Source: Vulcanimicrobiota bacterium
Lineage (GTDB): Bacteria; Vulcanimicrobiota; Vulcanimicrobiia; Vulcanimicrobiales; Vulcanimicrobiaceae
Assembly (NCBI GenBank): GCA_027307235.1
Contig: DAHUXH010000001.1
Location: forward strand, 13,609-77,608
Direction of reading: 5' to 3'
Length of the DNA stretch: 64,000 bases
Positions 11,892 through 51,440 of this stretch are shown here, one piece after another. The first letter of the stretch is position 1. The number at the start of each line of letters is the position of its first letter. The notes under the pieces are model-generated. The model was not told where the DNA came from. It worked only from the letters and a program-made list of their open reading frames with translations, and searched no databases. The position numbers and the translations under genes are program-made.

Positions 11892-11894
11892 TCA

Positions 11895-15694: not shown

Positions 15695-16857
15695 CGCGCG
15701 ACCGGCACTTGCCTCGCGCGAAGGACGCCATCAACGGTCTCGAGGTAGGCTTGCCCAACCTTCTCCCACGTCATCCCGTGTCCGAAGGCGTAGGCGCGCT
15801 TGGCCATGGCGTCGCGCGCGAGGTCGTGCTCGATGATGCGTGTGAATGCTGCCAGCGTCGCACCCGCGTCCGCGAACGGCACAAGGACGCCGCGTTCCAT
15901 CGCCAAGACTTCGCGTGCGTAGTCGTGCGGAGCCGACAGGACGGCTTTTCCCGCTCCCATCGCGTACGCCAGCGTTTCGTTCGTCACGTGTTCGACGTTT
16001 AAGAATGGACTCACGTAGACGTCGGTCGCCGCGAGGTAACGCACCACTTCAGGAAGCGTCAGGTGGCGGTCGATGGTCACGACGTTCATCTCGGCGTCAT
16101 AGCGGCGAATGAGCGCACGCAGTTCCTCGCGATACTCCTGGCGTTGCCGCATCGGGACGTTCGGGTGCGCCGACCCGGCGATCACGTAGAGCACGTCGGG
16201 GTGGCGACCCGCGACCGATGCAACGGCTTGGATGGCCGTCTCCAGACCCGCATCGCTTTCGGTCGCGCCGAACGTGGTCAACACGAAGCGCCCTTCGAAT
16301 CCCACTGAGTGCTTCATCTCAGCGGTCTGGGCGAATGCCAGATCGGGAACACCGTATGCAATAATGTCGACGAGCCGTGGATCGACGGAATAGCGTTCGA
16401 TCAGCAGGGCTGCCTCCGTTTCGGAGAACACGACCATCCGTTCGCTGCGGCTGCACAGAAATTGCGTGAGCGAGAGCTGGGTGGGCGTCGGATCGGCCCG
16501 TACGGTGTGCAATGTCAAGATGAACGGCTTGCGAAGCGCTTCCACCAGATCTGCCAGCCATGAGCCGTCCGGCCCGCCGTAGAGCCCGTATTCATGCTGG
16601 ATATTGAGCACGACCGATGGATGCTGATTCACGAACTGTGCGGTAGCGGCATAGCTGGCACGATCGAATTGATCCAGCCGAGCGACTATCTGTTTGGGGT
16701 AGAGATACTTCGTGTCTCGAGCGTCGTCGACAGCCACGATTTCGCTCGACGTTCCAAGCTGCGCATCGAACGCCGGCAACAGGCTTGCGGTGTAATTCGC
16801 AATGTTTGATTGCCGTGGTGGATACGCTCCCAGGAACAGTACTGGCGAATCGGACAT
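15691..16857 (-). CDS. Glycosyltransferase, GT-B fold (group 1/GT4-like)
   Basis: Start set at ATG 16857 (MSDSPVLFLGAYPP) with GGAGGG upstream. The C-terminal half has YLAATDVYVSPFLNVEHVTNETLAYAMGAGKAVLS, typical of the Glycos_transf_1 region. Confidence 0.75.
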   Translation of the reverse strand: MSDSPVLFLGAYPPRQSNIANYTASLLPAFDAQLGTSSEIVAVDDARDTKYLYPKQIVARLDQFDRASYAATAQFVNQHPSVVLNIQHEYGLYGGPDGSWLADLVEALRKPFILTLHTVRADPTPTQLSLTQFLCSRSERMVVFSETEAALLIERYSVDPRLVDIIAYGVPDLAFAQTAEMKHSVGFEGRFVLTTFGATESDAGLETAIQAVASVAGRHPDVLYVIAGSAHPNVPMRQRQEYREELRALIRRYDAEMNVVTIDRHLTLPEVVRYLAATDVYVSPFLNVEHVTNETLAYAMGAGKAVLSAPHDYAREVLAMERGVLVPFADAGATLAAFTRIIEHDLARDAMAKRAYAFGHGMTWEKVGQAYLETVDGVLRARQVPVAR

Positions 16858-16987
16858 GACACCCTCCGAGTGAAGCATCGCGTTTGGGTGCGAATCCATG
16901 AGGAAGATTCTTGGAAGGGCGGTTCTCCGGGTCTTCAAACGATGCGGCTACCATGACGGTGCGCCGGCACATTGCGGGGAGTTCTTC

Positions 16988-17761
16988 ATGAATCGAGTCC
17001 TGGGAAAAGTCGCGATCGTCACGGGCGGTGCAATGGGCATCGGGAAGGCCTGCGCCCTCATGCTGGCCCGCGAGGGCGCGATGGTGGTCGTCACCGACAT
17101 CGACGCTGCGAGCGGTGGTGCCGTCGCGGGACAAATCGAGCGCGAAAACGGCAAGGCGATCTTCGTGAAACACGACGTCGCCTCCGAGAGCGACTGGAGC
17201 GTTGTGATGCGCGACACGCTTGCCACGTTCGGACGCCTCGACGTCCTGGTGAACAACGCCGGGATCGGAACGGTCGGCACCATTGAAGAAGCGACGCTCG
17301 AAGCATGGCGTCACCTCATGAGCATCAACTGCGACGGCGTCTTCCTCGGCATGCGCTACGCGATCGCCGCCATGAAGGCGTCGGGCGGCGGATCGATTGT
17401 GAATCTTTCCTCGATCTTGGGGCTGGTCGGCGACGGCGTTGCCGCTGCCTACTGTTCGAGCAAAGGCGCCGTGCGCTTGATGAGCAAGTCGGCGGCGCTG
17501 CACTGCGCCAAGTCAGGGTACAAGATCCGGGTCAACTCGGTGCATCCCGGCTACATCGAAACGCCGATGGTCGAGCATTTTCTCGATCTTGCGGCTGAAC
17601 GGCGTGCTCAGACTCTCAAAGACATTGAAGCCCTGCATCCGCTGGGTCACATCGGTGACGCCAGCGACGTCGCGTACGGCGTGCTTTACTTGAGTTCGGA
17701 TGAATCGAAGTTCGTCACCGGCAGCGAACTCGTCATCGACGGGGGCTACACCGCTCAATAG
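16988..17761 (+). CDS. Short-chain dehydrogenase/reductase (classical SDR)
   Basis: Start at ATG 16988 (MNRVLGKVAIVTGGAMGIG). TGxxxGxG, NNAG and YCSSK (YxxxK) motifs are present. Confidence 0.9.
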   Translation: MNRVLGKVAIVTGGAMGIGKACALMLAREGAMVVVTDIDAASGGAVAGQIERENGKAIFVKHDVASESDWSVVMRDTLATFGRLDVLVNNAGIGTVGTIEEATLEAWRHLMSINCDGVFLGMRYAIAAMKASGGGSIVNLSSILGLVGDGVAAAYCSSKGAVRLMSKSAALHCAKSGYKIRVNSVHPGYIETPMVEHFLDLAAERRAQTLKDIEALHPLGHIGDASDVAYGVLYLSSDESKFVTGSELVIDGGYTAQ

Positions 17762-17762
17762 C

Positions 17763-18209
17763 ATGATCGAAATCCTCGCGGACGATGAGATCGAACAGAT
17801 GCTGAAGGAACAAAGCGTCGGGCGCCTGGCCGTGCATGCCGACGGACAAACCTACCTCGTTCCGATCGCCTATGCGTATGCGAACGGCTGCATCTATGGT
17901 CACTCAGCGGAGGGACGCAAGGTGCGCATGATGCGGAAAAATCCGTACGTTTGTTTCGAGGTCGATGCGGTCGGCGATCTCTTCACGTGGCGCAGCGTGA
18001 TCGCATGGGGCACGTTTGAAGAGCTTCACGGCGACGACGCCGACGAGGCCATGCACATTTTACTGCTGAGATTTCTGCCGATGAAAACGCATCCGACCGT
18101 GCGAAGCATGTCGCAGCCGCGCCCGGGCGTCGACCCGTCGGCGGCCATCATCTATCGCATTCATCTGACGGAGAAGACCGGTCGCTTTGAGCGAACGGCC
18201 TTGACGTAG
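17763..18209 (+). CDS. Pyridoxamine 5'-phosphate oxidase-family (flavin-binding split barrel) protein
   Basis: Start at ATG 17763 (MIEILADDEIEQMLKEQSVGRLAV...). The pattern GRLA....G..YLVP..Y.....IY.HSA.G.K is typical of the Pyridox_ox_2/PNPOx-like family. Confidence 0.7.
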   Translation: MIEILADDEIEQMLKEQSVGRLAVHADGQTYLVPIAYAYANGCIYGHSAEGRKVRMMRKNPYVCFEVDAVGDLFTWRSVIAWGTFEELHGDDADEAMHILLLRFLPMKTHPTVRSMSQPRPGVDPSAAIIYRIHLTEKTGRFERTALT

Positions 18210-18212
18210 ATC

Positions 18213-18884
18213 GTGAGTTCCCGCTTCATCAACCGCGCGCACGCCGGCCGCGAACTCGCGCAACGCCTCCTTGCCTATGCGGACCGCCCTGATGTCATCG
18301 TCCTGGCGCTGCCGCGCGGCGGCGTTCCCGTCGCCTACGAAATCGCCACGCGTCTACACGCACCCATGGACGTCTATGCCGTTCGCAAGCTCGGCGTGCC
18401 GGGGCACGAAGAGTTGGCGATGGGTGCGGTCGCACCCGACGGCACGACGATTGTCGACCGCCAACTCCTCGACTTGGTAGGCGTGAGCACCGAGGAATTC
18501 CATGCCGTCGTGCAGCGTGAGCTCGCCGAAATTCGCCGCCGCGAGCACGCCTATCGCGACGAGCGGCCGCGGCCGAGCATCGACGGCAAGACCGTTTTGG
18601 TCGTCGACGACGGCCTAGCCACCGGCGCCACCATGAGCGCGGCGGTCAACGCGTTACGCGCACAACATCCGGCGAAGATCGTCGTCGCGGCGCCGGTCGG
18701 CTCGCCGGAGACCTGCGGGATGCTCGCAGAGATCGCCGACGACGTAGTCTGCGTCGACATGCCGCTCGCATTCGGTGCGGTCGGTATGTACTACGACGAT
18801 TTTCAGCAGACCGGCGATGACGAAGTACGCCAGCTCCTCGCACGAGCGGCCGAAGAGGCATCCAAGCGATGGAACATCGTGTGA
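18213..18884 (+). CDS. Phosphoribosyltransferase-family protein
   Basis: 223 aa, GTG start. FINRAHAGRELAQRL, LALPRGGVPVA and the PRPP loop VLVVDDGLATGATM. Confidence 0.85.
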   Translation: MSSRFINRAHAGRELAQRLLAYADRPDVIVLALPRGGVPVAYEIATRLHAPMDVYAVRKLGVPGHEELAMGAVAPDGTTIVDRQLLDLVGVSTEEFHAVVQRELAEIRRREHAYRDERPRPSIDGKTVLVVDDGLATGATMSAAVNALRAQHPAKIVVAAPVGSPETCGMLAEIADDVVCVDMPLAFGAVGMYYDDFQQTGDDEVRQLLARAAEEASKRWNIV

Positions 18885-32219: not shown

Positions 32220-32570
32220 TGGTGGAGCTGTCGGGGAACTGCCCCCCGAGTCCGAAAAGCCTGACCGACGCGTTCTCCAAGCTCAGCTTCGATTTTTTCT
32301 TATTCGCGCGAGCGCCTTGAAGCCGGGCTTTCGCGTGCTGCAGATTCTTGATTTTGCACGCCCGTCGAATCAGGCGAACGTGCTAGCCGGAGTTTATGGC
32401 GGTAGGCGGGTTGATTCCGGCAACCTCCCGCTTCCCGTCGCTAACCTAGATTAGGCAGCGAGTGCGTATTGATTATCGGCAGATGTGCCGTTGCGATCGT
32501 TTTAGGAGGGCTCGCAGCTCCGCTTGCTGACGTCGACCACGGATCTCCTCGTCGAACCTGACTCAGCCCC
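32220..32570 (-). ncRNA. ssrA: tmRNA (transfer-messenger RNA)
   Basis: The minus strand reads 5' GGGGCTGAGTCAGGTTCGACGAGG ... GGACTCGGGGGGCAGTTCCCCGACAGCTCCACCA 3'. The acceptor stem is GGGGCUG/CAGCUCC with G3:U. The internal tag ORF is ...AAC GGC ACA TCT GCC GAT AAT CAA TAC GCA CTC GCT GCC TAA (..NGTSADNQYALAA stop). Length is 351 nt including the encoded CCA. Confidence 0.9.
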
Positions 32571-38571: not shown

Positions 38572-38645
38572 TCGGGGCGACTGGATTCGAACCAGCGACC
38601 TCTTCGTCCCGAACGAAGCGCTCTACCAAGCTGAGCCACGCCCCG
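38572..38645 (-). tRNA. tRNA-Pro (anticodon CGG)
   Basis: The minus strand reads CGGGGCGTGGCTCAGCTTGGTAGAGCGCTTCGTTCGGGACGAAGAGGTCGCTGGTTCGAATCCAGTCGCCCCGA. Acceptor stem CGGGGCG/CGCCCCG. Anticodon stem CTTCG/CGAAG with loop TTCGGGA. T-loop GGTTCGAATCC. CCA is not encoded. Confidence 0.93.
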
Positions 38646-39410: not shown

Positions 39411-40094
39411 ATGTTTATTTTGATAGTCGGCGGCGGAAAAGTCGGCTCTTATCTGACGCGCGCCCTGCTGCAGCAAGGCCATGAAGTCGTGATGGTCGAG
39501 AAAGAAGCGCGCAAGGCCGAGATGCTGGAGCGCCTGATCGATCGCCAGGTAACGCTGGTCGGCGACGGCTGCGATCCGACAGTGCTCGAACAAGCCGGGA
39601 TCGGCCGAGCCGACGTCGTGGTCGCGGATACCGGTGACGACGAAGACAATCTCGTGGTCACGCTCATCGCGAAGAAGAAAACCAAGGCGCGCTGTATCGC
39701 GCGCGTCAACAATCCGAAGAACAAGCTGATCTTCGAATCGCTCGACACCGAAGACCCGGTCACGGTGATCTCGACGACCGAACTGATTCTCGACGTGCTC
39801 AACGAGCAGGTCAACGCCGCCAGCTTCCGCAGCGCGGTCGAGACGATGCATCTCTTCGGCAAGGGCAATCTCCAGCTCGTCAAACTCTCGGTTCCCGAAA
39901 ACTCGCCTGCGAGCGGCCGGCGACTCGCCGAACTTCCGTTTCCCCGCAACAGCGTGCTGGTGGCGATCGACCGCGGTGAAGACGAACTCACGATCCCAAG
40001 CGGCGACACCCAACTCAACTCCGGCGACCACGTCATCGCCATCGTAAAAAACGGCGCCGGCGAAAAACTCCGCATGCTCCTCTGCGGCAGCTAA
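39411..40094 (+). CDS. trkA: Trk/Ktr-type K+ uptake regulatory subunit, second paralogue
   Basis: 227 aa. MFILIVGGGKVGSYLTRALLQQGHEVVMVE...GRRLAELPFPRNSVLVAIDRG...LNSGDHVIAIV. Confidence 0.85.
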   Translation: MFILIVGGGKVGSYLTRALLQQGHEVVMVEKEARKAEMLERLIDRQVTLVGDGCDPTVLEQAGIGRADVVVADTGDDEDNLVVTLIAKKKTKARCIARVNNPKNKLIFESLDTEDPVTVISTTELILDVLNEQVNAASFRSAVETMHLFGKGNLQLVKLSVPENSPASGRRLAELPFPRNSVLVAIDRGEDELTIPSGDTQLNSGDHVIAIVKNGAGEKLRMLLCGS

Positions 40095-40729
40095 TTCAGA
40101 TATCCGCGATGGAAGGCGATGACCGCGGCCTGCGTGCGGTCGGAGGCTGAGAGTTTTTCCAGGATGTCGCGAATGTGGCCCTTGACGGTTCCCAGACCCA
40201 TGTGCAAACGTTCGGCGATCTCCGCGTTGCCGATCCCGTCGGCGATCAAACGCAGAATCTCGGTCTCGCGCGGCGAGAGCGGTGAAGCCGCTCCTTTCGA
40301 CGATTCATCCGACGTGAAGCGCGCGAGTACGACATGCGCGATGCGCGGATCGAAGTATGCTCCGCCTTCACGCGCGATCTCGACCGCCGCGATCACACGC
40401 TGCGGATCGGCCGTTTTCAACACATAGGCGTCGGCGCCGGCAGCAAGCGCCGCCAACACCTCGCGCTCATGGTCGGTCATGGTGACGATGACGACGTGCG
40501 TGGCCGGCAGCTCCGCGCGAATCCGCCGCGTGAGTTCGATGCCGTCCATTCCCGGAAGTCCGATGTCCAGCACGGCCACATCCGGCCGTTCCCTGGTTAT
40601 CGCATCCCAGCCCGCGATTCCGTCGGCGGCTTCGCCGACGACGTCGCACGTCGCCGAAAGCGTCGTCAGGAGTCCGGCGCGCGTGAGCGCGTGATCTTCG
40701 ACGATCACGACGCGAGCGCGGGCATTCAT
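40091..40729 (-). CDS. Response regulator, NarL/FixJ (LuxR HTH) family
   Basis: 212 aa. Receiver domain VVIVEDHALTRAGL...DVAVLDIGLPGMDG. C-terminal HTH LSPRETEILRLIADGIGNAEIAERLHMGLGTVKGHIRDILEKL. The start overlaps the stop of the upstream kinase gene by 4 nt (ATGA). Confidence 0.9.
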   Translation of the reverse strand: MNARARVVIVEDHALTRAGLLTTLSATCDVVGEAADGIAGWDAITRERPDVAVLDIGLPGMDGIELTRRIRAELPATHVVIVTMTDHEREVLAALAAGADAYVLKTADPQRVIAAVEIAREGGAYFDPRIAHVVLARFTSDESSKGAASPLSPRETEILRLIADGIGNAEIAERLHMGLGTVKGHIRDILEKLSASDRTQAAVIAFHRGYLN

Positions 40730-42315
40730 GCTTGCCCTGCTCGCGGAAACGTCACGGTGAAGACACTGCCCTTCGGCTCGCGCGGGCGGTATGCGATCGA
40801 TCCGCCGTGATGCTCGACGATGCGCCGAACGATGTACAATCCCAATCCCGTTCCACTCCCCATGCCGCCTCCGCCGCCGAAACGCTCGAAGAGCAGCGCG
40901 CGCCGTTCGACGGGAACGCCGTACCCGTCATCTTCAATGTCAATGCGTACCTGTTCCGCTTCGCCGTCGGCGCGAAGGCTGACCGCTCCGCCGGCCGGCG
41001 TCGCGGCGATCGCATTGGCGACCAGATTGGTGATCGCCCGGCGCAGTTCGGAAGCGTCACCCTCGACGATCGCGGGCAGCCCGGCGATGCTCGGCGTCAA
41101 CGTGACGTTCTTGCTGAGCGCGAGCGGGCGCAGCTCATCGACGACGCGTTCGACCTGCGTGCGCATGTCAACCGGCTCTCGCAGCGTTGACGCCTCGCCC
41201 GATTCATACCGCGCCACCAGCAGCAGCGTTTCCACCAAACGGCGGACGTCGTCGTTGCTCGACAGCGTCGAGCGCAGAATATCCCGGTACGCATCGGGAA
41301 GCGGGCCGTACGCTCCGTCGAGCGCTTGCTGCATCGTCACGCGGGCGGCGGCAAGCGGCGTTCGCAGATCGTGCGCGAGCGCATAGACGAGATCGCGAAT
41401 GACGCGGCTGCGTTCCTGCAATGCGTTCTTCTGCTCGGCAACCGCTTCATTTTGCTCGCCGAGTTGCGTGAACAGCCGCGCCTGGCGCAACGCGACCGCC
41501 GCACCGTCGGAAAACGCTTGCAACATGCGCTCGCTCTCGGCGTCGAACGCGTCGGCGCCCCCAAAGAGCAGCAGCACCGCGCGCATGTCACCTTCCACGA
41601 GCGGTGCCACCAAGGCCGCCTGCGCGCCTGCGGCTTCGATGACGGACCGCGCAATCGCGTCATCGAGCCCGACGCGATCGGCATGCCCGCGATCGAGCAC
41701 GCGCTGCACCAGCGACGCCACGTGCGGATCCATCGCCCGCCGTTCCAACCCGACGTCCGCGCCGCCGGCCGCAAACCGGTAGGTGTCCGGCACGCGCAAC
41801 GTCGAGCGACGAACGATCAGTCTGGCGCTCTGCGCACCCAGCAGATGGACGCACTCGCGCACGGCCGTGCGCATCACGAGTTCAACGTTGAGGCTCGCGC
41901 GCACCGCATCCAGTGCCGCACGCAATGACGCTTCCGCCTCGGCGCGCCGTTCACGCTCGCGTGACGCTCCCGCGCTGCGCGCGAACTCTTGCGCTTTGAC
42001 GGTCAAATATCCGACCAGCAGAAACGACGCACCCGACAGCACCCGGTCGCCGATTGCCACTGCTTGCCAGTGATAGCCCTCTTGGATGCCATTGACATAG
42101 CCCGCAGCGATATTCGCAACCTCGGAGAGCAGCACGAGGACGATGGTCAGCCGGCCGCGCAGCGCAAGGCCCGAGAGCGCGATCGGGCCATTGAGCAACA
42201 CGGCGGCAACGAACAGTTGCGGCGTCAGAAGATCGACGACCCAGCAGGCCGCGATCAGGGCAAAGCACAGCCACGGAATCGCCGCCTGGTATCGCGGAAA
42301 TGTCGCATCAGCCAC
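40726..42315 (-). CDS. Sensor histidine kinase: 4 TM - GAF - HisKA - HATPase_c (resembles the C-terminal half of KdpD)
   Basis: ORF 40726..42642. I prefer GTG 42315 (VADATFPRYQAAIPWLCF...) because the upstream 109 codons are Arg-rich and run towards the divergent gene. H-box YALAHDLRTPLAAA, G-boxes DDGYGVP and GTGLGLYIVRRIVEHHGGSI. Confidence 0.8.
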   Translation of the reverse strand: MADATFPRYQAAIPWLCFALIAACWVVDLLTPQLFVAAVLLNGPIALSGLALRGRLTIVLVLLSEVANIAAGYVNGIQEGYHWQAVAIGDRVLSGASFLLVGYLTVKAQEFARSAGASRERERRAEAEASLRAALDAVRASLNVELVMRTAVRECVHLLGAQSARLIVRRSTLRVPDTYRFAAGGADVGLERRAMDPHVASLVQRVLDRGHADRVGLDDAIARSVIEAAGAQAALVAPLVEGDMRAVLLLFGGADAFDAESERMLQAFSDGAAVALRQARLFTQLGEQNEAVAEQKNALQERSRVIRDLVYALAHDLRTPLAAARVTMQQALDGAYGPLPDAYRDILRSTLSSNDDVRRLVETLLLVARYESGEASTLREPVDMRTQVERVVDELRPLALSKNVTLTPSIAGLPAIVEGDASELRRAITNLVANAIAATPAGGAVSLRADGEAEQVRIDIEDDGYGVPVERRALLFERFGGGGGMGSGTGLGLYIVRRIVEHHGGSIAYRPREPKGSVFTVTFPRAGQA

Positions 42316-42334
42316 GGCACTTCGCGCGTTCTCT

Positions 42335-42356
42335 CCGCAGGTGCGGCTACCTGCGG
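42335..42356. promoter_or_regulatory. Perfect 8-bp inverted repeat in the divergent kinase / KdpD-N intergenic region
   Basis: CCGCAGGT-gcggct-ACCTGCGG, lying between GTG 42315 (minus strand) and ATG 42360 (plus strand). Confidence 0.3.
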
Positions 42357-42359
42357 CGG

Positions 42360-44558
42360 ATGGACGCGGTGCGACACCGAAGCTCCGCGCCAGAGATGAA
42401 TCGCCACGACAGCACCCACGACGAAGATATGCGTCGCCGCGCCGCCGCGCAAAGTGCGCTCGAAGAGGTCGGCAGCCGCGCGCGACTGCTCGTCTACATC
42501 GCGAGCGCCCCCGGTGCCGGGAAGACACGCCGTCTGCTCGACGACGCGCAACGCGCCCGGACGGCGGGACGCAACGCGATGATCGGCTGGGTCGAAACCA
42601 AGGATCGTCCGGACCTCGATCGTCTGGCCGCCGACATTCCACGCATACCGCCGCGCATGGTCACCGTCGGCGGCGAGCAGTTCGCAGAATTCGATCTCGA
42701 AGCGGCGATCGCGGCGAAGCCCGACGTGGTCGTGCTCGACGAACTCGCGCACGACAATCTCGCGGGGTCGTCGAATGCGAAACGCTGGCAAGACGCATTG
42801 ACGCTGCGCGAACACGGCATCTCGGTCATGGGCGCATTCAACATCGCACACCTGGAAACGGCCGCGCCGGTCGCGGAGGCGGCGCTCGGCTATCCCGTGC
42901 GCGAAATCGTGCCACTGTCGTTTTTGAAATCCGCCGACGAGGTGATCGCGCTCGACGTCTCCCCTGAACTACTCGAACGCCGTCTGCACTCCGGGAAGAT
43001 CGTACGCGACGAAGACGTCGGCCGCGCGCTGGCGGGATCGTTCAAACCGCAAACGCTCTACGTCTTGCGCCAGTTGCTGCTGCGCACGATCGACGAACTG
43101 ACGATCCCCGCGATCTCCGCCGACGCGGTCTCGACCGCGGCCGCCATCCTTCCCCTGCGCTTCGCCGATCCGTTGCCGTTCTTGCGCCGCACCGCCGCTA
43201 TCGCCAGCGCCCTCGACCTGGGCCTCGAAATCTACTGCGCTCCCGGCGCCTCGATGGATGTGCTCTCCGCGATGGGGCATGACTTGGACGCGGAAGTGTT
43301 GCAAGCGCCGCATGAGCCGCGCGACGAGGACATCGACCGCGTCCGCGCATCGCTGGTCGCGGTACCGCTGTCGAAACTCGCGTCGCGCTGGGCGAACCGG
43401 CGCATCGATCGCGATCTGTTCATCGCCGGCCCAGGGCAGACGTTTCTCTCGCAGCCGCCGCTCTCATCGCAACTCTCCGGCGCACTCGGCGATCGCCTGC
43501 GCATCGGATACGGCAAGTTGACCGTCTATCTCGGCGCCGTAGCCGGATCGGGAAAAACGTATGCGATGCTCGATCGCGGCCATGTCCTCAAGGCCGAGGG
43601 CGCCGACGTCGTCGCCGGATTCATCGAGACACACGGCCGCAAGGAGACGGCTGCGATGCTCGAAGGGCTGGAAGTTCTCCCGCGCAAGCGCATCGTCTCC
43701 GGCACCATCACCTACGAGGAGTTCGATCGCGAAGCGCTGATCGCGCGGCGCCCGAAAGTCGCGCTCATCGACGAACTCGCGCACACCAACGCGCCCGGAT
43801 CGCGTGCAGCCAAACGCTACGAAGACGTGCTCGCGATTCTCCGCGCCGGCATCGACGTGATCACCACCTTGAACGTGCAACATCTCGAAGCCCTGGGTGA
43901 TGCGGTCTTTCGCCTCACCGGGACAGTCGTGCGCGAAACGTTGCCCGACGGCATTCTCGCGCTCGCCGACGAGGTGATCTTGATCGACGTCACGCCGGAG
44001 ACGCTGCGAGAACGACTGCGCGCCGGAAAGATCTACCCGCCCGAGCGCATCGAAGCGGCGCTCTCCAACTTCTTCCGCACCGACAATCTGCGCGCGCTGC
44101 GCGAATTAGCCGTTCGCGAAGCGATGCGCGCGAAAGATCGCGAGCGCGTCTCCGCGCCCTTTGAACGCTTACTGCTGGCCGTCGCCGCACGCAAGAGCGA
44201 TCTTCCGATGATCGCGCGCTGTTCGAAGATCGCCGTGCGCTTGGGAGTCGACTTCGTGGTCGCCAACGTCAGCCCGCCGGACGAGAAACAAGACCCCGGC
44301 GTGGTCGCGGCCTTTGCAGCTCAGACGCAGCGCGCGGGCGGAACCTGGATCAACGAACGCCACGCCGACGTTCCCAAGCGCATCCTGGAGATCGCACGTT
44401 CGCAATCCGAAACAACCGTCGCCGTCGGTGGAACCGTGCGCACACCGCGCTGGCCGCAACCCAACTCCTTCGCACGGCGCCTGCTGGATGCCGGAGCCCG
44501 CGAACTCATCGTCCTAGCCCGCCGCCACGAACACATCGAAACCATCGAAGCCGACTAA
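42360..44558 (+). CDS. Tandem-duplicated KdpD N-terminal sensor (KdpD-N + Usp-like) protein without TM or kinase domains
   Basis: ORF 42300..44558. The start is uncertain (ATG 42300/42360/42396/42429). There are two KdpD-N modules: LLVYIASAPGAGKT...DELAHDN...GISVMGAFNIAHLE and LTVYLGAVAGSGKTYAM...DELAHTNAPGS...GIDVITTLNVQHLE...FFRTDNLRALRELA. Each is followed by a Usp-like segment. Confidence 0.8.
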   Translation: MDAVRHRSSAPEMNRHDSTHDEDMRRRAAAQSALEEVGSRARLLVYIASAPGAGKTRRLLDDAQRARTAGRNAMIGWVETKDRPDLDRLAADIPRIPPRMVTVGGEQFAEFDLEAAIAAKPDVVVLDELAHDNLAGSSNAKRWQDALTLREHGISVMGAFNIAHLETAAPVAEAALGYPVREIVPLSFLKSADEVIALDVSPELLERRLHSGKIVRDEDVGRALAGSFKPQTLYVLRQLLLRTIDELTIPAISADAVSTAAAILPLRFADPLPFLRRTAAIASALDLGLEIYCAPGASMDVLSAMGHDLDAEVLQAPHEPRDEDIDRVRASLVAVPLSKLASRWANRRIDRDLFIAGPGQTFLSQPPLSSQLSGALGDRLRIGYGKLTVYLGAVAGSGKTYAMLDRGHVLKAEGADVVAGFIETHGRKETAAMLEGLEVLPRKRIVSGTITYEEFDREALIARRPKVALIDELAHTNAPGSRAAKRYEDVLAILRAGIDVITTLNVQHLEALGDAVFRLTGTVVRETLPDGILALADEVILIDVTPETLRERLRAGKIYPPERIEAALSNFFRTDNLRALRELAVREAMRAKDRERVSAPFERLLLAVAARKSDLPMIARCSKIAVRLGVDFVVANVSPPDEKQDPGVVAAFAAQTQRAGGTWINERHADVPKRILEIARSQSETTVAVGGTVRTPRWPQPNSFARRLLDAGARELIVLARRHEHIETIEAD

Positions 44559-44561
44559 GAA

Positions 44562-45137
44562 TCAGGGCTTCTTGCCATCCAGGGCTAGGTTGAGTTGCAT
44601 GACGTTTACTCGCGGCTCGCCGAGGAAGCCGAGTTCACGGCCTTGCACGTTCGCGGCGATCACGGCTTTGACCGCGTCGAGCGTGAGCCCGCGTGCCTTC
44701 GCGACGCGCGGTGCTTGCCAATAGGCGCTCTCGGGGCTGATGTCGGGGTCGATGCCGCTGCCGCTCGACGTCACGAGATCCATCGGCGGCGGGCCGACCG
44801 CATCGGGATCGGACTTGCGCAGCGATGCAATCGTCGCTTTCGTCGCGTCGATCAGCTTCTTCGCCGAGGGCGCGAGGTTGGTGGGGCTGGTGTTGGTCGG
44901 ATCGTAGCCCTTCCCGGCAGCCGACGGCCGGCCCCAGAAGTACTGCGGCTTGGTCCACAATTGCCCGATGATGTCCGAGCCGACGACCTTTCCGTTGACC
45001 TCGACGAGCGAGCCGTTCGCCTGTTTGGGGAAGAGCACGTTGGCGATGCCGGTCATCGCGAGCGGGTAGATGAGCCCCAGCAAGACGACCGTGACGATCG
45101 TGATTCGTATCGAAGTGCCGATGTGTCTTAGCATCAT
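44562..45137 (-). CDS. kdpC: K+-transporting ATPase subunit C
   Basis: 191 aa. N-terminal TM, then GLIYPLAMTGIANVLFP..ANGSL...SSGSGIDPDISPESA..Q..RVA.ARGL, the KdpC signatures. Confidence 0.92.
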   Translation of the reverse strand: MMLRHIGTSIRITIVTVVLLGLIYPLAMTGIANVLFPKQANGSLVEVNGKVVGSDIIGQLWTKPQYFWGRPSAAGKGYDPTNTSPTNLAPSAKKLIDATKATIASLRKSDPDAVGPPPMDLVTSSGSGIDPDISPESAYWQAPRVAKARGLTLDAVKAVIAANVQGRELGFLGEPRVNVMQLNLALDGKKP

Positions 45138-45143
45138 TCGTCC

Positions 45144-47210
45144 TTACGTCAAGTGGAGCGCGGCGAGCATCATGTCGATCAGCTTGATGCCGACGAACGG
45201 AATAATGATTCCGCCAACCCCGTAGATCATCACGTTGTTGAACAAGACGGAGTTGGCGCCTCTCGGGGTATATTTCACACCGCGAAGCGCCAGCGGCACC
45301 AACGCGATGATGATCAGCGCATTGAAGATCACCGCTGAGAGAATCGCGCTTTGCGAGGTGGTGAGGCGCATGATGTTGAGTACGCCCATCGCCGGATACG
45401 CGGTCGCGAACATCGCGGGGAGGATCGCGAAGTACTTGGCGACGTCGTTGGCGATCGAAAAGGTGGTGAGCGCGCCGCGTGTCATCAGCAACTGCTTGCC
45501 GATCTCAACCACCTCGATCAGTTTGGTCGGATCCGAATCGAGATCGACCATGTTCGCCGCTTCCTTGGCGGCTTGCGTTCCGGAATTCATCGCCACGCCG
45601 ACATCAGCTTGCGCCAGCGCCGGTGCATCGTTGGTTCCGTCGCCGGTCATCGCTACCAGACGCCCCGAAGCCTGTTCGCGCTTGATGAGGTCCATCTTGG
45701 TTTCGGGGGTCGCCTGCGCCAGGAAGTCGTCGACGCCGGCTTCTTTGGCGATCGCCGCAGCCGTGAGCGGGTTGTCGCCGGTGATCATGACGGTGCGAAT
45801 TCCCATCGCGCGCAAACGCGCGAAGCGCTCCGTCATGTTCGGTTTGAGAATGTCCTTGAGGTAGATCACACCGAGCACGTTCTTGCTGCGCGCCAACAGC
45901 AGCGGCGTTCCGCCCGCGCGAGCGATACGCTCGACTTCGCCTTCGAGTTCGGTGCTCGGCGCGCCGCCCGATTCACGCACCCACGCGAGCACCGCATCGG
46001 GAGCGCCCTTGCGAATCTGCGTACCGTCGGGAAGATCGACGCCGCTCATGCGCGTGTATGCGCTGAAGGGCACGAAGATCGCATCTTTGGGAAGCACGCC
46101 GTCACCCGACACGACGCCGGAGTTCTGCGCGAGCAGGACGATCGAACGGCCTTCGGGCGTCTCGTCAGGCAGCGACGACAGATACGCAGCCAACGCCGCA
46201 TCATTTTTTGCAACCGCCTTGGCGGTGACAATCTCCACGGCTTGCCGATTGCCGAGCGTGATCGTGCCGGTCTTGTCGAGCAACAGCGTGTCGACGTCGC
46301 CGGCGGCTTCAACCGCGCGCCCGCTCATCGCGAGCACGTTGCGCTGCATCACGCGATCCATCCCGGCGATGCCGATTGCCGAGAGCAGTCCGCCGATGGT
46401 CGTCGGAATCAAGCAGACGAGCAGCGCGATCAGCACGGTAACCGTCTGATGCGCGCCCGCATAGACGGAGAACGGTGCGAGCGTGGCGACCGCGATCAAG
46501 AAGATGATCGTCAACCCCGCGAGCAAGATCGAAAGTGCGATCTCGTTGGGCGTCTTCTGCCGCTTCGCGCCTTCGACGAGCGAGATCATGCGGTCGAGAA
46601 AACTCTCTCCCGGATTGGTCGTCACACGAACGACGATCTGATCGGAGAGCACGCGCGTGCCGCCCGTGACCGCGCTGCGGTCTCCGCCCGACTCCCGGAT
46701 GACTGGAGCGGATTCGCCGGTGATCGCCGACTCGTCGATCGTCGCCGCGCCTTTGATGACGTCACCGTCTGCCGGAACGATATCACCCGCATCAACCATC
46801 ACCACGTCGCCCTTGCGAAGCGCGCTCGCGGCGACCGTGCGGACCGTCGTGCCGTCGGGACCAAGCAGTTTCGCCGACGTGTCCGACTTACTGCGACGGA
46901 GAAATTCGGCCTGCGCTTTGCCGCGCCCCTCAGCCATCGCCTCGGCGAAGTTCGCGAAGAGCACCGTGAACCACAGCCAAAGCGAGATCGCGAGATCGAA
47001 ACCGGTTTGCTGGCTGTGCGACGCGAGATCGCGCGCAAAGAAGATGAGCGTGACGAATGCACCAACTTCAACGATGAACATGACCGGGTTGCGCGCCTGC
47101 CACCGCGGATCGAGTTTCGGAAACGAATCCGCGATCGCGCGCGTGATGATGGCGCTATCGAAGAGCGAGCGTGCCTTCGGACGACGCTCCAAACGGCGTT
47201 GTGACAGCAT
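45144..47210 (-). CDS. kdpB: K+-transporting ATPase subunit B (P-type ATPase)
   Basis: Start set at ATG 47210 ([18 protein letters not shown]), one nt after the kdpA stop. [42 protein letters not shown] and [16 protein letters not shown] are present. Confidence 0.93.
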
Positions 47211-47211
47211 G

Positions 47212-48912
47212 CTAGAACGTCTTTCCTTGCAGCACTTGCAGATGTTCAACGATGGGGCCGAGCGAGTCGGCCGGGAGGAATGTCAGCGCACCGACGATGA
47301 TGATCGTACCGAGCAGTAAGCCGACGAAGATCGGCGAGTGGGTCGTGAATGTGCCCGCCCCCATCGGCGACGCCTTCTTACCGGCGAGCGCGCCGGCGAG
47401 TGCGAGCGCCGGGATCGCGACACTAAACCGTCCGAACATCATGTTGACGCCGGTAGCGATGTTGTAGAACAGGTTGGAACCGAGGCCCGCGAATGCACTG
47501 CCGTTGTTGGCATTCGTGGACGTGAAGGCGTAGAGAATCTCGGAGAAGCCGTGAGCGCCGTTGTTGCTCAACGTCGCCAAGCCTTGCGGCACGAGTACCG
47601 CCACCGCGGTCGGGACCAAGCACAGCACCGGAGTCACCAAGACGGCGAGAATCGCAAACTGCACTTCGCGACGCTCGATCTTCTTTCCAAGAAACTCCGG
47701 TGTGCGCCCGACCATCAAACCGGCGATGAACACCGTCAACACGACGAATACGATCATGCCGTAGAGTCCGCTGCCGACGCCGCCGAAGATGATCTCACCC
47801 AGTTGCATGTTGACCAAGGGAACCAAGCCCGCCAGCGGCATGAACGAGTCGAGAGCGGCGTTGACGGCTCCGCACGACGTGTCGGTCGTGACCGTGGCGA
47901 AGAGCGCGGATGCTGCCGCTCCGAATCGAAGCTCTTTTCCTTCGAGGTTTGCTCCGGCTACGCCAAGTTGATGCACCAGCGGGTTGCCGCCCGCCTCACC
48001 CCAATACGCGACGGTGAATCCGATGGCGAAGATCACCGACATGGCAGTGAAGATCGCCCAGCCTTGCCGCGTGTCTTTCACCATCTTGCCGTACATGTAG
48101 ACCAGTCCGGCCGGAATCAGGAAGATCAGCAACATTTCGAAGAAGTTGGAGAACGGCGTCGGATTTTCGTTCGGCGATGCCGAGTTCGCACCGACGAAGC
48201 CGCCGCCGTTGGTTCCCAGTTCCTTGATCACTTCTTGCGAGGCCATCGGACCGCCGGTGATCTGCTGCGAGAAGCCTTCGAGCGACGAGACCGTCTGATA
48301 AGCATGAAGGTTCTGCGGCACGCCTTGCATGACGAGCAGCAAGCCGCCGACGACGGAGATCGGCAACAGCACGTAGAGCGTTGCGCGCGTCAGATCCACC
48401 CAGAAGTTGCCGAGCGTCTTCGCTGACGTTCTCGCGACGCCGCGCACGACCGCCACCGCGATCGCGATGCCGACGGCCGCCGACACGAAGTTATGCCAGG
48501 CAAGTCCAGCCATCTGCGAGAGATAACTCAGCGCGTTTTCGCCGGAGTAGAACTGCCAGTTCGTGTTCGTCAGGAAGCTGACCGCCGTGTTCCATGCCAG
48601 GTCGGGCGCCATCGGCGGCATGTGCTGCGGATTGAACGGCAGCCATTGCTGCGTCCGCAGCAACACGTACAAGTACGCGAAGCCGGCGAGGGAAAATCCG
48701 AGCATCGCCAGCGCGTACGTGTACCATGGCATCTCTTCATCGACGCGCACGCCGCACAAGCGATAGATCAGCTTCTCGATCGGTTCGATCACCGGCGAGA
48801 GCCACGTGCGCCCACCCTCAAAAACGCGCACCAGGTAGAGACCGAGCGGCTTCGTGAGGGCTAAGATGATGAGGAAGTAGATGACTGCTTGCAGCCAACC
48901 GATAGCGGTCAT
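47212..48912 (-). CDS. kdpA: K+-transporting ATPase subunit A
   Basis: 566 aa. [27 protein letters not shown]...TNTNWQ..SGE....LSQM...NF.SAA.G; LGTNGGGF. Typical KdpA selectivity-filter-like segments. Confidence 0.93.
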
Positions 48913-48921
48913 GAATCGCTC

Positions 48922-49011
48922 CTAGAACTTCTCTGGACGCAGCATTGCGAACACGAGGTACGCAAGGCCGCTGACAGTGAGCACGATTCCCAGTATGTCG
49001 TCAAACTGCAT
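48922..49011 (-). CDS. kdpF: K+-transporting ATPase subunit F
   Basis: Not in the ORF track as such. The minus strand gives ATG CAG TTT ... = MQFDDILGIVLTVSGLAYLVFAMLRPEKF (29 aa) with the conserved C-terminal RPEKF. GGAG lies between its stop and the kdpA ATG. Confidence 0.85.
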   Translation of the reverse strand: MQFDDILGIVLTVSGLAYLVFAMLRPEKF

Positions 49012-49015
49012 GGCG

Positions 49016-49102
49016 CTACACCTTCTCGCATCCGATGACGTAGAAATCCAAGATCGCAAAACAGGCGATCGACAAGAGCGCGAGGCCGAGTTCGAGCATC
49101 AT
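49016..49102 (-). CDS. 28-aa hydrophobic micro-protein between the porin gene and kdpF
   Basis: MMLELGLALLSIACFAILDFYVIGCEKV. Its ATG overlaps the porin stop (TAATG), and GGGAG lies 11 nt upstream. Its stop is 4 nt before the kdpF ATG. One TM helix. Confidence 0.5.
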   Translation of the reverse strand: MMLELGLALLSIACFAILDFYVIGCEKV

Positions 49103-50286
49103 TAGAATTGCGCTCCCAATTCGAGCAGCGCGCGCGTTTGGGTAGAGTTTTTGCCCGCCGGTCCAAACGTGAGCCCCGGCGTGAAGTTGGTCGCCTGAAC
49201 TCCGGAGAGTTCGGCACGGACGAAGAACGCGTTCATCTTGTAGGCCGGCGTGAACGTCCACGTGGTGGCGCGACTGCCTGGACCGTATCCCAAGAAGTCC
49301 GCATTCGCCGAAGTGTCGGTGGTCCCAGAGTGGTTCGTGAACGACTCGTAGCGCGCGGCCAGCGAATACCGGTCGTTGAACGCGTAGTTCGCGAGCATCA
49401 CCGCGCCGGCCGCGCTCTCGCTGCTCGTGAATCCAAGCGACGCCGCCGCCGGCGAGTGGATGAGAAGCAGATACGGTAGGACCTGCAGTTTTCCGAACTG
49501 CTGCGTGAGCATGAAGTCATACTCGCTCTTGTTCGCGATCGAGGTCGTCACGTTGCCCGGCGTACCTGCGCCCGGCGCGATGAAGGCGAATTGCAAGTTC
49601 GTGTTCGCGCTCGGCATCCAGCCGAGCAGTCCTTCGACCGCGCGGTGGCTTCCGGTGTAATAGCCGTCGTTCGCCTCGAGATTGCCGGTGAACTTCCCTT
49701 GCGTGTAGGTTGCGCGCACGCCGCGGCTGATCGTCGGCTCCGCGTTGAACCCGAGCCCGCGCTGGATGTTCAAATTCTGATAGGTGAACGGGCTCTCTTG
49801 ACCGAGCAGCGCCGCCATCTTGCCGGCAGTCACCGTCAGGCTGGGACTCGCAACATACGAAACGTTCGCCAGCGGTATGTATCCGAAGAGCGTGGAGTTC
49901 GCGCTGTCCTGCGTCGTCGTGTTGAGCGACTGCCCGATGACCGGCAACGCGTACGCGCCGACGGTAACGCTGAACTGCAACGCCCCGGTATTCTTCGTCA
50001 GCGTGGCGAGGGCGTTGCCGATCTCCGTCCGGCTGGTGCGATCGGCACCGGTCGGCGTGTCGAGCGCTCCGACTGCATTGACGTTGTTAGTATGTGCGCT
50101 GTACAGCGAGAATGCGCCGTGCAGCGAGTACGCGGGCGTCGGGGTTGGGTTCGCCGTCGGAGCCGGGCTCGGCGAGGGCGCGGGGGTCTGCGTCTGCGCG
50201 CGCAGTGCGACCGGCGTCAGCGCGGTCATGACAAGAGCCGCCAACAAGAAACGGCGGGAAGCGTGGTATAGCATCCGTTCGAGCAT
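49102..50286 (-). CDS. Outer-membrane porin-like beta-barrel protein, first gene of the kdp transcription unit
   Basis: 394 aa. Signal peptide ...LTPVALRAQ, a Pro/Thr/Ser-rich linker and alternating beta-strand patterns. The C-terminal LLELGAQF ends in Phe. Confidence 0.7.
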   Translation of the reverse strand: MLERMLYHASRRFLLAALVMTALTPVALRAQTQTPAPSPSPAPTANPTPTPAYSLHGAFSLYSAHTNNVNAVGALDTPTGADRTSRTEIGNALATLTKNTGALQFSVTVGAYALPVIGQSLNTTTQDSANSTLFGYIPLANVSYVASPSLTVTAGKMAALLGQESPFTYQNLNIQRGLGFNAEPTISRGVRATYTQGKFTGNLEANDGYYTGSHRAVEGLLGWMPSANTNLQFAFIAPGAGTPGNVTTSIANKSEYDFMLTQQFGKLQVLPYLLLIHSPAAASLGFTSSESAAGAVMLANYAFNDRYSLAARYESFTNHSGTTDTSANADFLGYGPGSRATTWTFTPAYKMNAFFVRAELSGVQATNFTPGLTFGPAGKNSTQTRALLELGAQF

Positions 50287-50338
50287 ACCAGCGACCGCAC
50301 CGGTGTGCTACCCTCCGAACGGATGATCCGAACGGATG
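50272..50338 (-). promoter_or_regulatory. Triplicated 10-12 nt element around the SD and start codon of the porin/kdp unit
   Basis: Minus-strand RNA: CAUCCGUUCGGA-u-CAUCCGUUCGGA-GGGUAGCACACCGGUGCGGUCGCUGGU-AUG-CU-CGAACGGAUG. There are two direct copies upstream (50314-50338 on the plus strand) and one perfect 10-nt inverted copy in codons 2-5 (50272-50281). Confidence 0.45.
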
Positions 50339-50339
50339 G

Positions 50340-51440
50340 TCAGGCGGTCTTTCGACGTGCCGGGATCAGTCGCCGGATGACCAGCGGGATGACGGAACCG
50401 CTTCCCAGCAGTGAGCCGAGCGTCACGGCGAACGTCGCATCGATGATCGCCTCGCGATAGGGAACGCTAGGCGGCAGTGCGAGCGCTAGCGCAAGGCAAA
50501 GCGCGCCGCGCACACCGGCGACGCGCACGACGTCCAGCCATTGGCGCGGAAAGCCGGCGGGCCACAGCAAGCCGCTCACCGCCAAGCGCGAAACGGCGAC
50601 GCCGGCGATCGCTGCGAGCACGAAGACCGGTTGCGCAACGACCACCGAGATGTGCAGCGCAGCGCCCACCAGGAAGAACACGAGGCCATTGGCGACGATG
50701 GCGGCGACGTCCCAAAAACGATTCACATCGTCGGCGATCCGCAAACCAACCCAGGCACGCTCGTACCACCGCAGCGCAATCCCGAACGAGATCACGGTAA
50801 ATATCCCCGACAAGCCGAGCCATTCACCCAGAAAATACGTCGCATAGGCGCACAGCAGCGTCGCCGCGATTTGCAGGCGCGCAGCCGTTCGGCCGTGCAG
50901 CAATGCCGCTACCGCCCATGCGAGTCCCAAACCGAGCACGATGCCGCCGCCTGCTCCCAACAGAGCGAGCGTCATGTGCAACGCGATCGCGCGGCTCGTG
51001 ACGCCGCCGGCTAGCGCCGCCAGCACGCCTCGATACAACACGACGGCAACCGCGTCGTTGAACAGCGCCTCGCTCTCGATGATCGTGGCGAGTGTCTGCG
51101 GCACCTTGAGCCGCCGAAAGATCGCCACCACTGCGATCGGATCGGTCGCGCTCAAGATCGCACCTGCCAGTGCGGCAGACGCGATGGGAATGCCGACGAG
51201 GCCAAGCGCGCCCGCGATGATCGCTGCCGTCAGCACAACCCCCGGTCCGGCTAAGGCTGCAATCGGCAGCCACTGCCGCTTGAGCGCACGGTAGTTCAAG
51301 TTCCACGCGGCCTCGAACACCAGTGGCGGCAAGAACACGTACAGCGTGGCGTGGCCGAACGCATACGTGAGCCGGCCAGGCTCGATACTGCCGAACACGA
51401 TACCCGCCGCGACGATGACGAGAATCGCCCACATCTTCAT
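50340..51440 (-). CDS. Cation:proton antiporter (CPA1/NhaP-like, short)
   Basis: 366 aa, about 10-11 TM. LPPLVFEAAWNLNYRAL...GAILSATDPIAVVAIF...IIESEALFNDAVAVVLY. These are Na_H_Exchanger family motifs. Confidence 0.8.
   Translation of the reverse strand: MKMWAILVIVAAGIVFGSIEPGRLTYAFGHATLYVFLPPLVFEAAWNLNYRALKRQWLPIAALAGPGVVLTAAIIAGALGLVGIPIASAALAGAILSATDPIAVVAIFRRLKVPQTLATIIESEALFNDAVAVVLYRGVLAALAGGVTSRAIALHMTLALLGAGGGIVLGLGLAWAVAALLHGRTAARLQIAATLLCAYATYFLGEWLGLSGIFTVISFGIALRWYERAWVGLRIADDVNRFWDVAAIVANGLVFFLVGAALHISVVVAQPVFVLAAIAGVAVSRLAVSGLLWPAGFPRQWLDVVRVAGVRGALCLALALALPPSVPYREAIIDATFAVTLGSLLGSGSVIPLVIRRLIPARRKTA

Follow-up and report, generated by a model that had tools for sequence, protein, structure and literature searches.

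A Kdp locus of Vulcanimicrobiota with a doubled KdpD-N/Usp protein, a separate four-transmembrane GAF kinase and a NarL-type response regulator

The control of the potassium pump KdpFABC by KdpD and KdpE is a textbook two-component system, and only in 2024 was the N-terminal part of the sensor, KdpD-N, recognized as a serine kinase of the pump itself. When K+ is high, this atypical serine kinase shuts the pump down by phosphorylating Ser162 of KdpB (Silberberg et al. 2024, PMC11018627). The isolated KdpD-N domain suffices for the inhibition of KdpB, the serine-kinase activity of E. coli KdpD-N is governed by the K+-sensing transmembrane (TM)/GAF part of the protein, and a short KdpD/Usp protein of Deinococcus likewise inhibits KdpB and is stimulated by cyclic di-AMP (c-di-AMP) (PMC11018627). 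Serine kinase and histidine kinase are found on separate chains in many species: 140 species have a KdpD/Usp protein together with a separate TM/GAF/DHpCA kinase, and a class named 'KdpD domain, Usp domain x2' comprises 86 species (80 Bacillota, 2 Cyanobacteriota and 4 Nitrospirota), Alicyclobacillus acidocaldarius and Gloeobacter among them (PMC11018627, Suppl. Data 2). A first description of the Alicyclobacillus split kdpD dates from 2006 (Schleussinger et al. 2006, as cited in PMC11018627), and read-through expression has been proposed to matter in split systems (PMC11018627). Here we describe a Kdp locus in a 64,000-nucleotide stretch of an uncultured soil bacterium of the Vulcanimicrobiota (assembly GCA_027307235.1, contig DAHUXH010000001.1, positions 13,609 to 77,608), referred to below as the window, in which a doubled KdpD-N/Usp gene, a divergent sensor kinase gene and a NarL-type regulator gene adjoin kdpFABC. 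We put at about 60% the probability that the Kdp control module of Eremiobacterota consists of a serine-kinase off-switch and a separate transcription arm made up of this kinase and this regulator.

The split and doubled KdpD, which an initial annotation of the locus had set against the canonical single-chain protein, is not without precedent, given that the split is published and the doubled class tabulated for 86 species (PMC11018627). What is already on record is thus the splitting of KdpD and the doubling of KdpD-N; what is new here is a lineage-specific kinase without DUF4118, its NarL-type partner with a candidate palindromic operator, a diverged first module, a convergent layout, and the occurrence in a further phylum. 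Comparison loci (L numbers) include those of a scan with one genome per GTDB species, mapped by BLAST and HMMER; the synteny set consists of the window together with 15 loci, independent of one another, of relatives in the Eremiobacterota (Vulcanimicrobiota), and the doubled-protein set of the best 120 database clusters, at 61-100% identity, from NCBI, JGI, ENA and Logan assemblies. The nearest protein relatives come from metagenome-assembled genomes (MAGs) labelled Vulcanimicrobiaceae, Baltobacteraceae, Cybelea or Eremiobacteraeota, and on the strength of relatives with 61-74% identity the window is assigned to that phylum.

The doubled gene encodes a soluble protein in which a KdpD-N module followed by a Usp-like tail occurs twice:

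42396-44558, plus strand: soluble (KdpD-N + Usp-like) x2 protein, 720 amino acids (aa), with two PF02702 stretches; 100% identical to P0001
42480-43100, plus strand: KdpD-N of module 1, residues ~29-235, diverged (PF02702, 203.8 bits)
43131-43430, plus strand: Usp-like tail 1, residues ~246-345 (AlphaFold2 pattern; Foldseek matches of the tandem USP type)
43512-44147, plus strand: KdpD-N of module 2, residues ~373-584, canonical (PF02702, 284.4 bits)
44163-44519, plus strand: Usp-like tail 2, residues ~590-708 (alignment with E. coli KdpD; AlphaFold2 fold; Foldseek)

The cut-off of PF02702 is 26.1 bits. Module 1 carries the Walker A motif SAPGAGKT (A-x5-GKT-RR), the Walker B motif DELAHDN and the third motif FNIAHLE, and module 2 the corresponding AVAGSGKT (G-x5-GKT-Y), DELAHTN and LNVQHLE, so that the tandem modules which the initial annotation had placed beside kdpFABC are borne out both by the two PF02702 matches and by the presence in the translations of every motif it had quoted. 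Equally correct was its statement that the protein has no TM or kinase part, Pfam giving no TM, HisKA or HATPase part in it. The open reading frame (ORF) extends over 42300-44558 on the plus strand, and the database gene call begins at 42396, not at 42300.

The assignment of the two tails as Usp-like, made in the initial annotation, also stands, though the Pfam Usp model matched neither of them even at E<=10; it is supported by the predicted fold and by the alignment with E. coli KdpD. An AlphaFold2 model built from a 70-sequence alignment (mean predicted local distance difference test score 80, predicted TM-score 0.51) has a 5-strand/4-helix alpha/beta pattern after each KdpD-N, and because the predicted TM-score is low it does not resolve the relative placement of the two halves. 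Foldseek matched the model to the KdpD-N structure of P. syringae, 2r8r (TM-score 0.94, root-mean-square deviation 1.7), to which module 2 is 51% identical (phmmer E 3.4e-62), and to the USP domain of S. aureus KdpD, 7ji4 (TM-score 0.81, the output not stating which tail was aligned), as well as to tandem USPs. In BLASTP, tail 2 is collinear with the Usp region of E. coli KdpD up to residue 360, module 2 as a whole being 42% identical to residues 23-360. With two of each domain on one chain and no TM/GAF/DHpCA part, the protein has the composition of the 'KdpD domain, Usp domain x2' class. It has in common with the KdpD of Deinococcus geothermalis, the cyanobacterial KdpD-N proteins and the NF038185 family ('KdpD-like non-kinase potassium sensor') the combination of KdpD-N and Usp without TM or kinase parts, the Walker residues, the KdpB serine and an expected role in the post-translational inhibition of KdpFABC; those short proteins are, however, single-module (~370 aa), whereas there are two modules here, and the NF038185 score is 473.6 bits against a cut-off of 550. 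To call this protein part of a sensor, as was initially done, misses the serine-kinase action of KdpD-N on KdpB (PMC11018627).

All 120 listed clusters are 699-733 aa long and hold both modules, and the two differ in what they have kept. In module 1, GKT is kept (with one GKS), as are D-E, H113 and R190 (120/120), and to these are added changes characteristic of the lineage: G30A and A40R in 120/120, W39R in 119/120 and the DELAHDN form in 108/120. In module 2 the catalytic residues are invariant in 120/120, position 39 being Y, M, V or F, and a hidden Markov model (HMM) made from module 2 scores module 1 at ~150-175 bits and module 2 at ~300-418 bits. According to mutagenesis, the residues which KdpD-N needs are the Walker A GKT, D109/E110 and R190; W39 and R190 form the adenine pair, and their double mutation nearly abolished the activity of the E. 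coli protein (PMC11018627). As its catalytic residues are kept in 120 relatives, module 1 is diverged and not decaying, and with the lineage-fixed W39R, at the adenine-stacking position, and G30A, in the P-loop, it may be a specialised or regulatory half.

On the other side of a short intergenic region lie, in the opposite direction, the genes of the kinase and of the regulator:

42316-42395: divergent intergenic region, 80 bp, with an 8-bp inverted repeat CCGCAGGT-n6-ACCTGCGG at 42338-42359
40726-42315, minus strand: sensor histidine kinase, 529 aa, GTG start, with four TM segments, GAF, HisKA and HATPase_c (Pfam, family alignment)
40091-40729, minus strand: NarL/FixJ-type response regulator, 212 aa, REC and GerE helix-turn-helix (HTH)

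The doubled gene on the plus strand thus stands divergent, across an 80-bp gap, to a kinase-regulator operon on the minus strand. The kinase ORF spans 40726-42642 (minus strand), and the 109 residues before GTG 42315 are rich in arginine; most likely the kinase starts at this GTG and the upstream residues are read-through. The domains are those given in the initial annotation, namely four hydrophobic segments and, by Pfam, GAF (PF13185/PF01590), HisKA (H-box AHDLRTPL) and HATPase_c. The further proposal that this kinase is the missing C-terminal half of KdpD holds for the architecture, which follows the same order of four TM segments, GAF, DHp and CA as residues 400-894 of E. coli KdpD, and for the context, both systems lying beside kdpFABC, but not for orthology. 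The membrane domain of KdpD, DUF4118 (PF13493), was found at E<=1 in none of 30 members of the kinase family, the controls (E. coli KdpD, the kinase of Alicyclobacillus mali and the kinase of L044) being positive. Profile-profile comparison (hhalign) with an alignment of the KdpD TM+GAF part from the fetched loci gave a probability below 1% for TM1-TM3 and reached 94% only over the last part of TM4 together with GAF, a similarity which we take as generic GAF homology and not as KdpD-specific. Among NCBIfam models the kinase core scores 121-128 bits with CztS, RppB and PhoR, compared with 86.6 bits for the KdpD model NF007793 (cut-off 1123), and in BLASTP the kinase is collinear with E. coli KdpD from the end of TM4 onward (26% identity over 437 aa, E 7e-27). 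A derivation of the kinase from KdpD-C by homology is accordingly not supported, with DUF4118 missing, the TM part below 1% in hhalign and NF007793 far under its cut-off; judged by its sequence, the kinase looks like a non-orthologous replacement of KdpD-C.

The TM part has a polar signature of its own, invariant in the family alignment (D28, TPQLF 31-35, P44, S48, Y73, N75 and D90-R91), and a sequence search of the PDB with the sensor region gave no match (best E 0.71). Word-indexed and exhaustive profile searches found this signature only in relatives of the same lineage, in proteins of ~500 aa or in shorter fragments. The exhaustive HMM search compared a profile of the kinase TM+GAF part with 1.84 billion representatives, and among the 150 best matches listed the full-length sensor matches are ~500 aa or shorter, bar one call of 1092 aa (P0246); this was considered as a fusion of KdpD-N to the kinase family and rejected, the KdpD-N domain being absent from it. 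Beyond the family itself the list says little on the TM domain, because giant multi-GAF proteins, whose repeats add up, swamp it.

The regulator has a Response_reg domain (2.3e-25) and a GerE domain (PF00196, 4.5e-18) and gives no match to the winged-helix domain Trans_reg_C in Pfam, which agrees with its initial description as a NarL/FixJ protein with a LuxR-type HTH and sets it apart from the OmpR-type KdpE. Its best NCBIfam scores (NarL 144 bits with a cut-off of 250, the unnamed model PRK15369 137 bits, MadR 134 bits) make it a member of the NarL/FixJ family with no named equivalog. Its ATG overlaps the TGA of the kinase by 4 nt (ATGA), a detail reported initially and visible in the ORF coordinates. 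FixL/FixJ is likewise a HisKA kinase with a regulator of the FixJ/NarL family (LuxR-type), and pairs of this kind share with the present one the HisKA DHp and a translationally coupled LuxR-HTH regulator, their inputs and targets being unrelated. The pairing is therefore not unprecedented, but the remark in the initial annotation that it is unusual remains apt in so far as, in C. glutamicum, HisKA kinases pair with OmpR-type and HisKA_3 kinases with LuxR-type regulators (PMC3353115).

The order of the three genes, with the regulator and the kinase reading one way and the doubled gene the other, is invariant in the window and in 15/15 independent loci, a set that takes in the surroundings of three kinase relatives from among the most divergent ones. 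In every locus that reaches far enough, kdpABC is no more than ~4 kb away: in most it follows the doubled gene tail-to-tail, in L002 and L007 it is displaced by ~3-4 kb, and in L009 kinase, regulator and kdpFABC stand head-to-tail on one strand with kdp directly downstream of the regulator. In the searches made, members of the sensor-domain family turned up nowhere but next to kdp and the doubled gene.

The pump genes of the window and the element ahead of them are as follows:

50314-50336: candidate operator, two 10-bp palindromes with a 13-bp period, TCCGTTCGGA, ending 27 nt upstream of the porin ATG
49102-50286, minus strand: BBP2 (OmpL-like) beta-barrel porin gene (PF07642, 1.1e-44)
49016-49102, minus strand: small ORF for a hydrophobic peptide of 28 aa, MMLELGLALLSIACFAILDFYVIGCEKV, between the porin gene and kdpF
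48922-49011, minus strand: kdpF, 29 aa (PF09604, 1.9e-7)
47212-48912, minus strand: kdpA (PF03814, 2.8e-241)
45144-47249, minus strand: kdpB, start codon uncertain, product 63% identical to E. coli KdpB
44562-45137, minus strand: kdpC (PF02669, 3.8e-70)

The minus-strand order is thus a gene of the Na+/H+-exchanger family, the porin gene, the small ORF, kdpF, kdpA, kdpB and kdpC, with the porin gene as the first of an apparent porin-kdpFABC operon and its stop overlapping the start of the small ORF. In KdpB the TGES target motif is identical to that of E. coli KdpB, and E161 and S162 are thereby conserved.

The element ahead of the operon has the consensus TCCGWWCGGA-n3-TCCGWWCGGA and is the only perfect palindrome pair in the 64-kb window. 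In L002, L003, L015, L085, L086 and L087 the same double site immediately precedes whichever gene opens the kdp operon (porin gene or small ORF/kdpF), and partly degenerate copies occur in L005, L006, L008, L009, L014 and at both kdp copies of L010. At least 12 related loci thus have the element in this position, a part of them in degenerate form. As the exact 10-mer is expected ~0.003 times per 100 bp (an estimate from base composition), this positional recurrence is far beyond chance. L087 has a second perfect pair at 12824-12846, ~40 nt upstream of a TrkA_N gene of 556 aa (11115-12785, minus strand), which suggests that the same regulator also controls a component of the Trk/Ktr type, and in L009 a palindrome-like element lies between the regulator gene and the kdp operon. 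In several loci a TAnnnT-like hexamer is found 25-35 nt downstream of the element, a spacing at which the element would lie at about -35 to -60, as an activator site would. Palindromic sites suit dimeric HTH proteins of the GerE/LuxR type, and the site of the OmpR-family KdpE consists of direct repeats. From these features we infer that the adjacent NarL-type regulator probably binds the double palindrome. The region between the kinase gene and the doubled gene is short in the related loci and holds no conserved motif, the 8-bp inverted repeat of the window not being kept there; an autoregulatory palindrome in it was looked for and is absent, save for a weak ACCGTTCGGT in L003.

The doubled gene converges on kdpC tail-to-tail, and it is thus not downstream within the kdp operon. 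In the window the two stop codons, read from opposite strands at 44556-44564, are 3 nt apart; in most of the related loci (L003, L006, L008, L010, L014, L015) the gene ends abut or overlap. With such ends, and with no terminator-like site between the doubled gene and kdpC, the convergent transcripts would have to overlap, and since the doubled gene is transcribed head-on into the pump operon, the expression of the pump and that of its presumed inhibitor could be mutually exclusive. Scans of 40000-50500 with sigma-70 promoter and terminator consensus sequences found no more than expected by chance. Control of kdp by a c-di-AMP or other riboswitch was considered and not found, the Rfam matches in the window being limited to a tmRNA and a tRNA.

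Outside the group of Eremiobacterota type, two-module proteins came up at four loci of the GTDB-species scan:

L070, Alicyclobacillus mali: doubled gene following kdpC on the same strand, with a divergent DUF4118-GAF_3-HisKA-HATPase kinase and an OmpR-type KdpE
L016, Bacillota MAG: gene order different from that of L070; ~7 kb downstream of the doubled gene, a kinase matching the TM-GAF part and the core of E. coli KdpD, and a KdpE
L013, Candidatus Cyanaurora (Gloeobacterales): no neighbouring regulators seen in the locus
L044 (3414-5657), MAG labelled Acidoferrum: DUF4118 kinase nearby

Three of the four have a DUF4118 kinase in the vicinity, and two of these a KdpE as well. The split Kdp of the Alicyclobacillus type is among the closest known systems, having the same soluble (KdpD-N, Usp) x2 chain and a separate TM-GAF kinase with a regulator near kdp, but it differs from the present locus in four respects. 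Both of its modules are canonical (GKTY, DELAHTN), whereas module 1 is diverged here; its doubled gene comes after kdpC in the same orientation and does not converge on it; its kinase has DUF4118 and GAF_3, while the one here lacks DUF4118; and its regulator is an OmpR-type KdpE (51% identical to that of E. coli, the KdpE-like ORFs beside the Bacillota doubled genes being 50-51% identical to it) in place of a GerE/NarL-type protein. Compared with E. coli, where KdpD and KdpE are two polypeptides, with DUF4118 and a winged-helix KdpE, there are three here, without DUF4118 and with a GerE-type regulator, and the operon is headed by a porin gene and a small ORF behind a candidate palindromic operator instead of a direct-repeat KdpE site. 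The doubled proteins of Bacillota and Cyanaurora have two canonical modules; in L044 module 1 is canonical and it is module 2 that lacks Walker A and DELAH (84.9 bits), an opposite asymmetry which suggests independent routes to an asymmetric tandem. In a neighbour-joining tree of KdpD-N modules, modules 1 and 2 of Bacillota form sister clades, and a long branch of its own leads to the Eremiobacterota module 1; this tree, crude and open to long-branch effects, suggests that doubling occurred more than once and argues against a single duplication shared with Bacillota.

Taken together, these data lead us to propose the following scheme. The doubled protein would act as a stand-alone atypical serine kinase which, at sufficient K+, phosphorylates the serine of the KdpB TGES motif and switches the pump off, as described for KdpD-N in E. 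coli and for the short KdpD of Deinococcus. Its two fused modules probably form an intramolecular pseudo-dimer in imitation of paired KdpD N-terminal regions, in which module 2 would be the canonical unit of catalysis and module 1 a specialised partner. Separately from it, the 4TM-GAF kinase, whose membrane/GAF part presumably senses K+, would phosphorylate the NarL-type regulator to which it is translationally coupled, and a dimer of this regulator or a pair of dimers would bind the double palindrome and turn on the transcription of porin-kdpFABC. In function the pair would thus stand in for KdpD-C/KdpE, to which it is not orthologous. The precedents, namely the short KdpD/Usp kinases of KdpB, the split systems and the Usp x2 class, speak for this scheme.

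Several points weigh against it. Nothing links the kinase to KdpD beyond the generic similarity of GAF and kinase core, and it is by synteny and the cis element only that the kinase is assigned to Kdp. Module 1 may be inactive, because W39R alters the W39/R190 pair. The palindrome could be the site of another regulator, and the kinase gene and the doubled gene have no copy of it between them. The doubled gene is convergent with kdpC, unlike the genes of the read-through split systems. Finally, the Deinococcus protein is activated by c-di-AMP, but the c-di-AMP motif SXS-x20-FTAXY that S. aureus KdpD has in region I of its USP domain (PMC4686210) was not seen, by eye, in region I of tail 2, which reads LLLAVAARKSDLPMIARCSKIAVRLGVDFVVANV (family consensus R..R-x8-FAVAH, also by eye) and looks closer to the E. 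coli type, RXXXR-x8-WXAVY.

Among the alternatives, the strongest would make the doubled protein a detached sensory half, which by docking to the 4TM-GAF kinase, or else to the complex of regulator and DNA, would adjust the kinase/phosphatase output, the two proteins jointly reconstituting a single KdpD. Its divergent pairing with the kinase, invariant even where kdpFABC has moved (L002, L007, L009), speaks for such a role, as does the control which the TM/GAF part exerts over the serine-kinase activity of KdpD-N in E. coli, and docking would be compatible with an additional serine-kinase role. Heermann, Altendorf and Jung reportedly found in 2003 that a separately expressed N-terminal domain of E. 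coli KdpD influences KdpE-dependent expression, and Ballal et al. are said to have obtained a functional Anabaena/E. coli chimeric KdpD in 2002. Yet the membrane part of the kinase is not a homologue of KdpD-C, so that the KdpD-N/KdpD-C interface cannot be assumed, and no fusion of KdpD-N to the kinase family appeared among the matches listed, P0246 being without KdpD-N. We consider this alternative rather unlikely, though given the invariant divergent pairing it is plausible that the doubled protein talks to the kinase.

Less probable still, at the level of an outside chance, is that the kinase and the regulator control the doubled gene, the TrkA-like genes or unrelated targets and that another factor binds the kdp palindrome. 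The kinase is indeed closer to generic HisKA kinases than to KdpD, TrkA_N/TrkA_C genes lie just past the regulator in the window, L086 and L087, and in L087 the palindrome also precedes a TrkA_N gene. This is offset by the finding of the sensor family only beside kdp and the doubled gene, by L009, where the regulator gene adjoins the kdp operon on its upstream side and the palindrome-like element stands in between, and by the fit of a palindromic operator to a GerE-type HTH dimer; TrkA genes in the regulon would, moreover, still make it a K+ regulon. As to the duplication being an artefact of assembly or gene calling, or a decaying pseudogene copy, nothing specific points that way except the stronger divergence of module 1, and we give it practically no credence. 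All 120 clusters, coming from NCBI, JGI, ENA and Logan, have both modules in one ORF with the catalytic residues kept, 15 independent loci carry the same gene, and the same architecture is found in cultured Alicyclobacillus; an assembly artefact, which the initial annotation had named as one outcome that would undo its reading, is thereby excluded.

Returning to the combination of serine-kinase off-switch and separate transcription arm, we advance with more reserve, as a conjecture at less than even odds, its evolutionary corollary, that Eremiobacterota kept the KdpD-N serine kinase and swapped the transcription arm of Kdp for a non-orthologous kinase with a previously undescribed 4-TM sensor, perhaps of K+, a NarL-type regulator and a palindromic operator. 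If so, the palindrome would define a K+ regulon of small size, made up of porin-kdpFABC and in some genomes also of TrkA-like genes, and an asymmetric tandem pseudo-dimer would be the form in which the serine kinase lives on. The current understanding of Kdp control is not overturned by this; it would follow that the serine-kinase arm and the transcription arm can evolve independently, the KdpD-N arm having been kept and doubled and the kinase/regulator arm exchanged, with a change in the class of DNA-binding protein and in the upstream cis element. The locus offers a natural test case for the role of a second KdpD-N module, a candidate new K+-linked membrane input domain, and a candidate operator for a NarL-type regulator in a phylum with almost no genetics.

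Some further features of the locus deserve mention. The porin gene has the same position in L002, L003, L006 and L015, and its product may serve, expressed together with the pump, as a way in through the outer membrane. Relatives of the small ORF (MLLExG...CF..LDLYV.GCE) precede kdpF in L005, L007-L010 and L085-L087; the 28-aa product has no match in Pfam and might be an additional small subunit of Kdp. In Deinococcus and Alicyclobacillus, small ORFs have been reported upstream of kdpF. The G+C content is ~60-67% all along the window, with no compositional break. Other genes in it are the following:

50340-51440, minus strand: Na_H_Exchanger gene, present also in L086
38673-40094, plus strand: pair of neighbouring TrkA_N + TrkA_C genes that converge on the response regulator gene
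38572-38645, minus strand: tRNA gene (Rfam)
32220-32570, minus strand: tmRNA gene (Rfam, 106.6 bits)

With the TrkA pair and the Na_H_Exchanger gene the region resembles a cation-homeostasis island; the TrkA genes past the regulator are present in the window, L086 and L087 and missing from L002 and L003, and the two RNA genes are apparently unrelated to the Kdp module. Some ORFs of the related MAGs are broken in two, namely kdpB in L002 (15517-17647), kdpC in L003 (12137-12725) and the doubled gene in L012 (9749-11972), for which assembly frameshifts are the likeliest explanation, rather than true pseudogenes. In L010 a second kdpA copy (16626-18369) lies on the opposite strand, ~3.7 kb from the first operon, and has its own partly degenerate double palindrome.

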